From Candidatus Lustribacter sp. (GTDB lineage: Bacteria > Vulcanimicrobiota > Vulcanimicrobiia > Vulcanimicrobiales > Vulcanimicrobiaceae): DNA of 64,000 nucleotides. This document shows positions 52,791-56,132 of the stretch, one piece after another; within the stretch, counting starts at the first letter, position 1, and every line of letters begins with the position of its first letter. The notes below the pieces were generated by a model. It was not told where the DNA came from. It worked only from the letters and a program-made list of their open reading frames with translations, and did no database searches. The DNA lies in contig OZ255842.1 of the NCBI GenBank assembly GCA_965277805.1, positions 1,248,001-1,312,000 of the forward strand, given 5' to 3'. A program made the position numbers and the translations under genes.

Positions 52791-55700
52791 ATAAAAGTAC
52801 ATAAGAGCACACAGGTGGATACCTTGGCACTCTAGGCGATGAAGGACGTAGCAAGCTGCGATAAGCTTGGGGGAGCTGCTAACGAGCGATGATCCCAAGA
52901 TTTCCGAATGGGGCAACCCACGTGCCGTCATGGGCACGTACTTCCTGATGAATCAAATAGTCAGGATAGAGCATACCCGGTGAACTGAAACATCTAAGTA
53001 GCCGGAGGAACAGACATCAACCGAGATTCCCGTAGTAGTGGCGAGCGAACCGGGAACAGCCTAAACCGTATACGTGTAAGCATTGAGGCGTTGCGTACAA
53101 CGGTGTTGTAGGGCAATCAGCCACGATCTCAATATCGTGGGCAGAGTAAAAAATCAGATCGATATCCGAAGCCGGCTGGAAAGCCGCACCAAAGACGGTG
53201 ATAGTCCCGTAGGTTAAATCGTTCTGACTCTGTCGATTGTTCCTGAGTAGGGCGGGGCACGAGAAACCCTGTCTGAAACTGGGGGGACCATCCTCCAAGG
53301 CTAAATATTCTAGAGTGACCGATAGCGTACTAGTACCGTGAGGGAAAGGTGAAAAGAACCCCCGAAGGGGAGTGAAATAGAACATGAAACCGTGTGCTTA
53401 CAAACCGTGAAAGGCCAATGCGCAAGCAAGGCTAATCGCGTGCCTATTGAAGAATGAACCTGCGAGTTACGTGGTACAGGCATGGTTAAGGTGTTGAGCC
53501 GGAGCCGTAGCGAAAGCGAGTCTGAATAGGGCGTTACGTCTGTATCAGTAGACCCGAAACCAGGTGATCTATCCATGGCCAGGCTGAAGCATGATTAAAC
53601 TCATGTGGAGGGCCGAACCTGTTGTTGTTGAAAAAACATTGGATGAGCTGTGGATAGGGGTGAAAAGCCAATCGAACCTGGAGATAGCTGGTTCTCCCCG
53701 AAATAGTTTGAGGACTAGCGTTGAAATTTAACCCATGGGGGTAGAGCACTGACAGGGCTAGGGGGCTTACCGGCTTACCGAACCCCATCAAACTCCGAAT
53801 ACCGTGGGGAACATCTCAGCAGTCAGACAGTGGGGGATAAGCTCCATTGTCAAAAGGGAAACAGCCCAGAACATCAGCTAAGGTCCCTAATCGATGCTCA
53901 GTGGTAAAGGAAGTCGTTTCGCATAGACAACTAGGAGGTTGGCTTAGAAGCAGCCATCCTTGAAAGAGTGCGTAATAGCTCACTAGTCGAGTGAGGCGGC
54001 GCCGAAAATGTAACGGGGCTCAAGCATCGAACCGAAGCTATGTGATTCACGCAAGTGGATCGGTAGGGGAGCGTTGTAGCGTAGGCTGAAGGTCGACCGT
54101 GAGGACGGCTGGACGAACTACAAGTGCGAATGCAGGTATAAGTAGCGATAAATGCGAGTGAGAACCTCGCACGCCGGAAGTCTAAGGTTTCCTGGGCTAC
54201 GTCAATCGTCCCAGGGTGAGTCGGGTCCTAAGCCGAGGCAGAGATGCGTAGGCGATGGCCAAGCAGTTCATATTCTGCTACCACCGACGTTAGTTTAGAC
54301 TTTATCGAATAGAGACGACCGGTTCGCCGGCCGTTTTTGTTCGCTAAAGTCTATGAAGTGAAGGGATGACGCAGGGGGATAATTCAGCGCACCGATGGAT
54401 GTGTGCGTCTAAGCTGGTAGGGGGTAACGTAGGCAAATCCGCGTTGCTAACCCCGAGAAGCGAATGCGAGCCTCTTTACGAGGTGAAGTGGATGACTCCG
54501 CGCTGCCAAGAAAAGTCTCTAGCTATAACATAGGTGCCCGTACCGTACACCGACACTGGTAGACTGGCAGAGCATGCTAAGGCGACGGGAGAATCCCTGT
54601 TAAGGAACTCGGCAAATTAACCCCGTAACTTTGGGAGAAGGGGTGCCCCTGACGGTTGAGTCTTTACGACGTAGGCTGTTGGGGGTCGCAGAAAATAGGC
54701 CCAAGCGACTGTTTAACAAAAACACAGGTCTCTGCGAACGCGAAAGCGGACGTATAGGGGCTGACTCCTGCCCGGTGCTGGAAGGTTAAAAGGAGAGGTC
54801 AGCGCAAGCGAAGCTTTGAATTGAAGCCCCAGTAAACGGCGGCGGTAACTATAACCGTCCTAAGGTAGCGAAATTCCTTGTCGGGTAAGTTCCGACCTGC
54901 ACGAATGGAGTAACGACTTGGGCACTGTCTCGATGGGGAACCCGGCGAAATTGCAGTACCAGTGAAGATGCTGGTTACCCGCGGCAGGACGGAAAGACCC
55001 CATGAAGCTTTACTGTATCCTGATGTTGAGTTCTGAGATTTTCTGTACAGGATAGGTGGGAGTCGATGATCCGGGGGCGCTAGCTTCCGGGGAGACAACC
55101 TTGGGATACCACCCTGAACGTCTTGGGATTCTAACTAACCACCGTGATCCGGTGGTAGGACAGCGTCAGGTGGGCAGTTTGACTGGGGCGGTCGCCTCCT
55201 AAAGAGTAACGGAGGCGCCCAAAGGTTCCCTCAGATCGGTCAGAAACCGATCGTTAGAGTGCATAGGCAAAAGGGAGCTTGACTGCGAGACGGACAGGTC
55301 GAGCAGGTGCGAAAGCAGGGCTAAGTGATCCGGCGGTTCCGAATGGAAGGGCCGTCGCTTATCGGATAAAAGCTACTCTGGGGATAACAGGCTTATCTCC
55401 CCCAAGAGTCCACATCGACGGGGAGGTTTGGCACCTCAACATAAGGGGTGACATGGTGGAAACACCATGGCAAATTACAAGTACCGGCTATAACGGTGAA
55501 CTCCGATCGTCTCAGGACTAGAGACGAGGACAATACCGTGGGAAGTCTGGCGTCAACGCAAGTTGCCGTTATGACCCCGTAACGACTGATCCATCCCACA
55601 CGGGATGGTGAGATAGTGCGTCATACTCGTAGACAGCGAGTAAATTTACGGCCATTATCACACGCCGGCTCCTCGCTCGAATTCGTTCGAGCAGGATGAA

Positions 55701-56132
55701 GATATAGTCTGCGCCATCAGTAATGATGGATACACGCGCGATGTCGGATCGTCGCATCCTGGGGCTGTAGTAGGTCCCAAGGGTTGGGCTGTTCGCCCAT
55801 TAAAGCGGTACGCGATCTGGGTTCAGAACGTCGTGAGACAGTTCGGTCCCTATCCGCCGTGGGCGTAGGAGATTTGAGGAGTGTCGACCCTAGTACGAGA
55901 GGACCGGGTTGAACGAACCGCTGGTGAACCGGTTGTCCCGCCAGGGGCATAGCCGGGTAGCTACGTTCGGATCAGATAAACGCTGAAAGCATATAAGCGT
56001 GAAACTGACTTCAAGATGAGATCTCAATCTCGAAAGAGGGAAGGGTCGTGGGAGACTACCACGTTGATAGGCCGGGGGTGGAAGGCGAGCAATCGCTGGA
56101 GCTGACCGGTACTAATAGCCCGGACACTTTTA
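52791..56132 (+). rRNA. rrl: 23S rRNA interrupted by a group I intron at 55437-55738 (ends approximate)
   Basis: GAACTGAAACATCTAAGTA, GGTAAGTTCCGACC, GGATAACAGGC, sarcin-ricin loop AGTACGAGAGGACC. Confidence 0.99.
55437..55738 (+). mobile_element. Group I intron at 23S U2500 (E. coli numbering), 302 nt, no homing endonuclease ORF
   Basis: Splits conserved GGCACCU|CGAUGUCGG; 5' exon ends in U, intron ends in G; IGS GGGTG pairs with CACCU via U.G; P/Q/R/S-like motifs TATAACGGTGAACTCC, AATACCGTG, CGTAACGACTG, AAGATATAGTC. Confidence 0.93.

Follow-up and report, generated by a model that had tools for sequence, protein, structure and literature searches.

The DNA analysed here (the window) comprises 64,000 nucleotides (nt) of the genome of Candidatus Lustribacter sp. 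(contig OZ255842.1, positions 1,248,001 to 1,312,000), and includes one rRNA operon, with the 16S gene at 50819-52319, the 23S gene at 52791-56135 and the 5S gene at 56243-56359; no tRNA gene was found in the operon region from 50000 to 57500. The 23S gene is the sole match to the large-subunit (LSU) rRNA model in the whole genome, a single contig of 5,533,281 bases, and measures 3345 nt including an insert, as compared with the 2925 positions of the model. The insert, 302 nt long and present once in the genome, interrupts the peptidyl-transferase loop (Table 1). Our analysis confirms, in position and architecture, that it is a genuine group I intron in the genome's only 23S gene. Read as a whole, it is very probably a subgroup IA intron between U2500 and C2501 (site L2500) that derives, without its endonuclease, from a mobile family and that splices out of the transcript.

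Position and fold of the intron

The conserved 5' exon (...GGUUUGGCACCU) ends with GGCACCT at 55436, the insert runs from a C at 55437 to a G at 55738, and the 3' exon CGATGTCGG begins at 55739, where the conserved sequence CGAUGUCGG... picks up again. In Escherichia coli MG1655, rrlH (225759-228662) has the same sequence, ...ttggcacct directly followed by cgatgtc..., the T being 23S position 2500 and the C position 2501. One base of the boundary is ambiguous, as the C may be either 55437 or 55739, and this was resolved by the group I rule that a U precedes the intron and a G ends it. The boundaries were also fixed independently, since in a genome of the same genus (G005, exons 99.3% identical) the site is uninterrupted, and the same junction is seen in all 17 aligned homologues, confirming insertion exactly after U2500. 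With the rrlH numbering and the empty site of G005, the coordinates given in the first-pass annotation for a 302-nt insert between U2500 and C2501 proved exact.

The general group I model RF00028 aligned to the insert over its full length (model positions 1-253) with 37.1 bits, and with E-values of 4.9e-8 when 421 nt were searched, 7e-7 for 6 kb and 1.5e-7 for the whole genome, in which this was the only match. The insert folds with an energy of -114.6 kcal/mol, as compared with -84.5±4.95 for shuffled sequences (z = -6.08), none of 100 shuffles being as good. For covariation, the window intron was aligned by MAFFT with 17 homologues, 8 nt of exon being kept at both ends of every sequence (alignment A1, 18 sequences). 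From this alignment RNAalifold recovered P1, P2, P3, P4, P5, P5a, P6, P7.1, P7.2, P8, P9.0 and P9, and found compensation in 41 of 78 pairs. A full structure drawn by hand, with the P3/P7 pseudoknot and P10 included, was tested on the same alignment; 90.6% of its 1612 cells were paired versus 30-46% (maximum 45.9%) with slid partners, and compensatory changes on both sides were observed in 48 of 93 pairs, while none of 500 shuffles reached any of these measures. Both domains of the group I core, P4-P6 and P3-P8, are therefore present in the window intron with covariation, although P1, P5 and P7 did not vary in A1 and covariation is uninformative for these. The group I identity proposed at first pass is thus borne out by the RF00028 E-value and by covariation on the 18 sequences, and all the helices that had been listed were found (P1, P10, P2, P3, P4-P6, P7, P7.1, P7.2, P8 and P9, together with the terminal G).

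At the 5' splice site, U55436 forms a U.G wobble pair within P1 in 18/18 sequences, and at the 3' splice site the window intron has its terminal G together with P9.0 and P10. P9.0, a helix added here to the earlier list, has two of three pairs that switch jointly to ACA/UGU in 4/18 sequences. In P10, one sequence carries a C-to-U change that keeps a U.G pair; this helix lies beyond the covariation test because the exon is fixed. P3 changes from C-G to U-A in two sequences, and its pairing of only 61% in the hand-drawn structure arises because MAFFT shifts the row of the window by one column. P7, the partner of P3 in the pseudoknot and the predicted guanosine-binding helix, has conserved joining segments on its two sides, GUAAC (J6/7) and GAUGAAGAUA (J8/7); the pattern scan described below fixed the P7 3' strand by design. 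Indels misalign the inner hairpin of P7.2, which accounts for its low pairing in A1 (Table 1), and the outermost C/U cell of P8 in the hand-drawn structure is paired in no sequence.

Two helices, P7.1 and P7.2, stand between P7 and the 3' strand of P3, which is the IA arrangement; peripheral elements like these serve for classification in PMC3984707. The window intron is subgroup IA, as the first-pass annotation had concluded from the same helices, which now show compensation in 6/7 pairs of P7.1 and 4/6 of the outer stem of P7.2. Within this subgroup it is most likely IA3-like, judging from a paralogue of the relatives about 93 nt downstream (~L2593), which is 67-69% identical to it, and from Table 1 of PMC6125680 (Nawrocki, Jones & Eddy 2018), where LSU/2500 and LSU/2593 introns of archaea are typed as IA3.

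Table 1. Features of the 23S rRNA gene and the L2500 intron, in window coordinates unless a homologous locus is named; n/18 counts sequences of alignment A1, other fractions count base pairs
Feature	Position	Strand	Observation
Host 23S rRNA gene	52791..56135	+	RF02541, 2717.5 bits, model 1-2925
Group I intron, 302 nt, after U2500 (L2500), without open reading frame (ORF)	55437..55738	+	RF00028 match 55427-55730
P1: exon CACCU + intron C (55432-55437) / guide GGGGUG (55445-55450)	55432..55450	+	6 pairs, 18/18, invariant
P10 5' strand ACAU; partner AUGU 55741-55744 in 3' exon	55439..55442	+	4 pairs, 18/18
P2 hairpin CAUGGUG-GAAA-CACCAUG, GNRA loop	55452..55469	+	7/7 pairs changed on both sides, 98% paired
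P3 5' strand CCGGC; partner GCCGG 55664-55668	55484..55488	+	RNAalifold columns 59-63/355-359 paired in 16-18/18
P4-P6 domain	55493..55578	+	Covariation on 18 sequences
P4	55493-55498/55534-55539	+	100% paired
P5	55502-55504/55528-55530	+	Invariant in 18 sequences
P5a	55508-55513/55521-55526	+	6/6 compensated
P6	55540-55542/55576-55578	+	P6/P6a/P6b together 5/11 compensated, 100% paired
P6a	55545-55547/55573-55575	+	Within P6/P6a/P6b, 100% paired
P6b	55548-55552/55567-55571	+	Within P6/P6a/P6b, 100% paired
P6b loop, 13 nt	55553-55565	+	Position of the endonuclease gene in relatives
P7 5' strand GACUG; partner UAGUC 55705-55709	55584..55588	+	Complementary 18/18, never varies
P7.1 hairpin CCAUCCC-ACAC-GGGAUGG	55591..55608	+	6/7 compensated, 93% paired
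P7.2	55613..55658	+	Outer stem and inner hairpin
P7.2 outer stem AUAGUG/CAUUAU	55613-55618/55653-55658	+	4/6 compensated, 98% paired
P7.2 inner hairpin UACUCG/CGAGUA	55624-55629/55637-55642	+	27% paired in A1; forms in the window's own fold
P8: UCCU/AGGA + GCUCGAA-UUCG-UUCGAGC	55670..55696	+	8/12 compensated, 85% paired
P9.0: GCG 55711-55713 / CGC 55735-55737, enclosing P9	55711..55737	+	100% paired
P9 CCAUCA-GUAA-UGAUGG	55714-55729	+	5/6 compensated, 100% paired
Terminal guanosine (omega-G) before C2501	55738	+	G in 18/18
Endonuclease ORF	L164 248-883	-	LAGLIDADG_2
Endonuclease ORF	L166 228-863	-	LAGLIDADG_2
Endonuclease ORF	L168 53-715	+	LAGLIDADG_2

Endonuclease-bearing alleles of the intron

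No ORF of more than 44 amino acids (aa) lies inside the insert, in agreement with its first description as an ORF-less intron, and no match to LAGLIDADG_2 (PF03161) was found anywhere in the window's genome (completeness 95%); the P6 loop of the window intron holds no such gene. When genomes of the same family were searched, the intron query was split in several of them at about base 124, with some 520 nt between the two parts. Five of these split-query genomes and two others were examined. The five same-family L2500 alleles are 812-824 nt long, and the three long alleles examined (L164, L166 and L168) all carry an ORF of 211-220 aa that matches the LAGLIDADG_2 profile over positions 1-168, with E-values from 6e-39 to 1.5e-37. 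The ORF starts with an ATG in P2, runs through P3-P6, has its body in the P6b loop and stops at a UGA inside ..CCGUCAUGAC.., in the 3' strand of P6b/P6a. Its first ~34 codons are also the 5' half of the ribozyme from P2 to P6, an overlap of core and coding sequence of ~100 nt. Sixteen ORFs from other phyla, chosen by eye among the longer matches of the scan described below for the motif '..MDDGS..YLNTQQF..LN.DK.Y.RIR', matched LAGLIDADG_2 without exception (16/16).

The corresponding loop of the window intron, read with its stem, is CUGGCGUCAACGCA followed by AGUUGCCGUUAUGAC. Judged by the long alleles, this loop consists of the first bases of the gene (..AACGCA) fused to its last bases (AGUUGCCGU.AUGA), and a stop within the P5a loop of the window breaks the leader frame (MVETP..YNGEL). 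Since only terminal bases of the gene are kept, the window intron would be a non-autonomous derivative. Shorter alleles show the gene in other states: in one of 536 nt it is in two broken pieces, and in one of 332 nt only its first codons are left.

Probable splicing and competing explanations

In the mechanism that we propose, the transcript would fold into two domains, P4-P6 and P3-P8, the second with a P3/P7 pseudoknot that P7.1 and P7.2 support, and P1 would arise from pairing of the guide GGGGUG with the exon CACCUC. Attack after U2500 would come from a free guanosine that occupies P7; the terminal G, positioned by P9.0, would then take up the same site while P10 aligned the 3' exon, and ligation of the exons would give a continuous 23S rRNA. 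The intron would be the homing-endonuclease-less derivative of a mobile L2500 intron with a LAGLIDADG_2 gene in its P6 loop; unable to home by itself, it would persist as a neutral passenger obliged to splice. Both this chemistry and splicing in the cell are what we infer. The elements specific to splicing, namely the U.G pair, the guide GGGGUG, the CAACAU of P10, P9.0 and the terminal G, are kept in 18/18 sequences. The one-contig genome has a single rRNA operon, so that without splicing the cell would have no 23S rRNA with an intact peptidyl-transferase loop, and this operon number, along with the constraint on the splicing-specific elements, leads us to regard splicing in the cell as near certain. 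The first-pass view that the intron must still self-splice follows reasonably from the operon number, though a protein helper may take part.

Assembled contigs from four publicly available runs, two of them RNA (X3 and X5) and two of unspecified kind (X1 and X4), were compared with positions 54637-56135 of the window at 98% likeness. Contigs with the whole intron and both junctions were present in X1 (391 nt, 0 differences) and X4 (391 nt, 5 differences), and an RNA contig of 349 nt from X3 (55413-55762) spans both exon-intron junctions with 4 differences and 1 gap. In X5, a metatranscriptome, a contig that matches from 55739 is preceded by 12 letters equal to the end of the 5' exon, and may stem from any intron-less bacterium. 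Intron-bearing contigs were shallower than the adjoining exon contigs (12.8 versus 41-85 in X1), a contig depth being unable to rank parts of a gene.

Several observations count against the interpretation as a whole. Among the contigs of the four runs, all of them assembled, no organism-specific exon-exon joint across 55437-55738 was found at 98%. The RF00028 score lies below the curated Rfam gathering cut-off of 50 bits, so that the match to this model, which the first-pass annotation had named as a check, held in length and E-value but not in score; the six L2500 homologues of relatives likewise fall below the cut-off, and the five RF00028 matches that reached the gathering threshold in relatives are at other 23S sites. 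Introns such as that of the window are therefore missed by default gathering-threshold Rfam scans and found in E-value mode, and PMC6125680 describes the general RF00028 as insensitive, without significant matches where subgroup models found introns. P7, the catalytic helix, is invariant in A1, and covariation is silent on it. The label IA3 comes from the two comparisons given above and not from a subgroup-specific (GISSD IA3) model. Finally, the loop ends shared with the long alleles fit the insertion of a gene into an ORF-less ancestor equally well, as a comparison of loops has no direction by itself.

This last point bears on a different history, in which the ORF-less form is ancestral, the LAGLIDADG_2 gene entered the P6 loop later in some lineages, and the window copy lost nothing. 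Such a history would agree with the excess of ORF-less over ORF-bearing alleles in the phylum sample described below, but we consider it unlikely: the broken gene of the 536-nt allele and the first-codon stub of the 332-nt allele show ongoing decay in the family, the same LAGLIDADG_2 gene is found in L2500 introns of distant phyla, and the ORF starts in P2 and stops inside the P6 stem, so that a gene entering the loop would have had to lack a start and a stop of its own. Because decayed intermediates exist, we infer loss rather than gain as the direction. The series of full (812-824 nt), broken and stub alleles, together with the loop ends of the window, suggests that the window intron probably lost its homing endonuclease, in support of the first-pass view of a residual intron that had done so.

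If the intron is spliced, the reaction might take place in the cell only with a protein helper, be it an RNA chaperone of the host, one of the ribosomal proteins or a maturase provided in trans. Precedents are given in PMC3984707, according to which the Thermotoga 23S intron depends at high temperature on the maturase activity of its LAGLIDADG protein and phage introns can be rescued by proteins of the host, StpA among them, and the endonuclease-bearing L2500 alleles, whose ORF is read through the 5' half of the ribozyme, show a close coupling of protein and RNA. Against this stand the lack of a detectable LAGLIDADG_2 gene in the window's genome, a complete core with all helices present and GNRA loops on P2 and P9, and the majority of ORF-less alleles in the phylum sample, and we judge dependence on a helper to be improbable, though it deserves to be kept in mind. 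Far less probable still is that the insert is not ligated out, either staying in the mature 23S rRNA or being excised by an RNase III-type cut to leave a fragmented 23S: a title cited in PMC11270868 speaks, for Simkania, of an 'unspliced group I intron in 23S rRNA', and the X3 contig with both junctions comes from an RNA library (it may equally be precursor RNA or carried-over DNA), but the peptidyl-transferase loop, where the insert is found, is universally conserved, the U.G pair, guide, P10, P9.0 (with its double compensatory changes) and terminal G would be purposeless without ligation and yet are kept in 18/18, and the sites consistent with RNase III-processed intervening sequences (IVSs), 23IS2 and 23IS4, differ from the group I sites 23IS6-14 (PMC11270868).

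Distribution of L2500 introns and relation to known systems

Forty relatives were scanned with a 200-nt stretch of the 5' exon, and 19 of them had this part of the 23S gene assembled. Six L2500 homologues were found in 5/19 (G017, G020, G031, G033 and G035), while in the three same-genus genomes with the region (G002, G003 and G005) L2500 is empty, with inserts at ~L1931 and/or L2473 instead. In an even sample of the phylum, the window intron was matched in 63 of 400 other genomes (the unpublished G194 counted in), where the denominator includes genomes without an assembled 23S gene and paralogues at other sites account for some of the weak matches; about 50 of the 63 matches begin at the first bases of the intron. 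ORF-less alleles outnumber ORF-bearing ones in this sample. The survey of L2500 occupancy suggested at first pass thus yielded homologues in 5/19 relatives and endonuclease-bearing alleles within the same family.

A scan of species-representative genomes with a pattern that combines the conserved J8/7-P7 motif with the 3' junction matched at least 119 stretches, at least 94 of which had the 23S 3' exon behind them, as compared with a chance background that we estimate at ~30 (20 fixed bases, 31 spacings, 596 billion bases, both strands). Among the 94 matches listed in a 23S context, 46 were compact, with the 5' exon within the flank, and 48 were longer or cut. The 3'-exon test was failed by 25 of the 119 listed loci, some of which are real introns with another intron close behind (L023, L032 and L087 carry a LAGLIDADG_2 ORF). 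Many of the L2500 matches are from genomes of the Candidate Phyla Radiation (CPR), and the taxa among the matches listed include CPR groups, Vulcanimicrobiota/Eremiobacteraeota, Actinomycetota, Acidobacteriota, Planctomycetota, Omnitrophota and a Coxiella endosymbiont, besides others. Since the L2500 family is this frequent in genome collections, the statement of the first-pass annotation that bacterial 23S genes seldom carry group I introns is out of date. The window intron is an ordinary short member of a mobile family that occupies the same site in many bacteria, and the family is already known; the literature searched held no publication that names an L2500 intron for this phylum.

Intron similarity does not follow 3'-exon similarity. 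Locus L027 is 98.3% identical to the window in the 3' exon and 80.9% in the intron, and L114 is 93.1% and 89.3% identical, respectively, which hints at horizontal movement, although we base no claim on it. The nearest named homologue listed, L120 (80% by BLAST), is on a 6.6-kb contig of a metagenome-assembled genome of Candidatus Acidoferrum sp. (Acidobacteriota) and has a 3' exon 93% identical to that of the window; it reflects either horizontal transfer or a mis-binned rRNA contig.

The archaeal LSU/2500 introns typed as IA3.2 and IA3.3 in PMC6125680 share the insertion site and general kind of the window intron, and RF00028 is insensitive for both. These IA3 introns have LAGLIDADG genes within them, IA3.1 with a large P6 insertion, and come from metagenome sequences; they are ~800 nt long, whereas the window intron is bacterial, 302 nt long and ORF-less. 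As described by Tsurumaki et al. 2024 (PMC11270868), the 23S introns of CPR/Patescibacteria cluster around the peptidyl-transferase centre in domain V, like the window intron, occur at one site in ORF-bearing and ORF-less forms with very similar flanks, and pass through a cycle of gain, decay and loss; positions are given there for 23IS6-8 and 23IS12-14 only. The window's host, in contrast, is not a member of the CPR and has a genome of 5.5 Mb.

Chloroplast and mitochondrial LSU rRNA genes also carry group I introns at site 2500, known from the Chlamydomonas chloroplast LSU literature, which fall into one subgroup family with the I-CreI-type introns of site 2593. They share the site of the window intron but have organellar hosts. 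In Coxiella, 23S group I introns are presumably located at L1917/L1951. The classical bacterial 23S introns covered in PMC1995217 and in titles cited by PMC11270868 are at sites other than L2500 (Thermotoga L1917/L1931, Simkania L1931, Synechococcus C9 L1917) and have in common with the window intron a location in domain IV/V, frequent LAGLIDADG genes and a relation to same-site introns of other lineages. A term search of PMC1995217 and PMC3984707 returned no mention of position 2500.

Other 23S sites are occupied in the relatives. In L137 (1675-1956; G003, same genus), an insert of 280-290 nt follows U2473, and this site is also occupied in L138 (G002), L141, L142 and L146-L149. Its junctions read GAGU followed by CAAUUUGGGCUC... 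and ...GCAGACG followed by CCACAUCGAC, and a group I core can be made out in it (..CGGUGAA..CAAUACCGAGGGAAGUC..GACCCUGUAACGACUGA..GAAGGUAUAGUC..), along with a guide, GCUC, that matches the GAGU of the exon, and a G at its end. It is clearly a paralogue of the L2500 intron. RF00028 gave no match to the L2473 insert at E ≤0.001, and no paper naming this site was found, judged by titles, in the literature searched. Breaks in the X1 contigs fall at 55408-55410, the L2473 site at which congeners have another intron, and may reflect a second 23S variant in that sample. Group I introns of 263-691 nt are found at ~L1931 in L132 (2080-2771; G005, RF00028 65.1 bits), L135, L136, L138, L141-L145, L148 and L149, and relatives also carry group I introns at ~L1951 and ~L2593. 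The 23S gene of the window has the L2500 intron only, and intron presence varies among species of the genus whose exons are 99-100% identical. One could imagine from this a soil and peat phylum outside the CPR with paralogous group I introns at at least five 23S sites (~L1931, ~L1951, L2473, L2500 and ~L2593), L2473 perhaps being uncatalogued, in which all ribosome production would pass through ribozyme splicing as a rate-limiting or regulated assembly checkpoint; we hold this to be quite doubtful, and the single operon was established for the window's own genome.

In domain I of the window 23S gene (53075-53141), there is an expansion of ~65 nt relative to the bacterial LSU model (insert columns of the cmscan alignment), which with the intron makes up most of the 420 extra bases of the gene. 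IVSs, another kind of extra 23S sequence, lie at the tip of a variable helix and are not known to have a ribozyme core or to be religated. The window intron would be like them in its absence from the mature rRNA. An RNase III-processed IVS was considered for the insert and rejected, as the insert occupies the peptidyl-transferase loop and shows a complete group I core; according to PMC11270868, IVSs are short sequences not classed as introns, cut by RNase III, at 23IS2 and 23IS4.

For the most part the window confirms what is known of group I introns: they enter the most conserved regions of rRNA by homing, lose the endonuclease gene and persist as compact ribozymes. The L2500 family is common outside the CPR, something that earlier publications on bacterial 23S introns do not convey. 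In practice, 23S annotation and primers mis-size such genes, and the general Rfam model scores the family below its cut-off. The clade offers a natural series, from a full endonuclease allele through a broken gene and a stub to a minimal intron of 302 nt, that is useful for studying the life cycle of introns and for work on minimal IA ribozymes. As there is one rRNA operon, splicing of the intron would be essential, and the organism, if it can be grown, would provide a clean system in which to study it.

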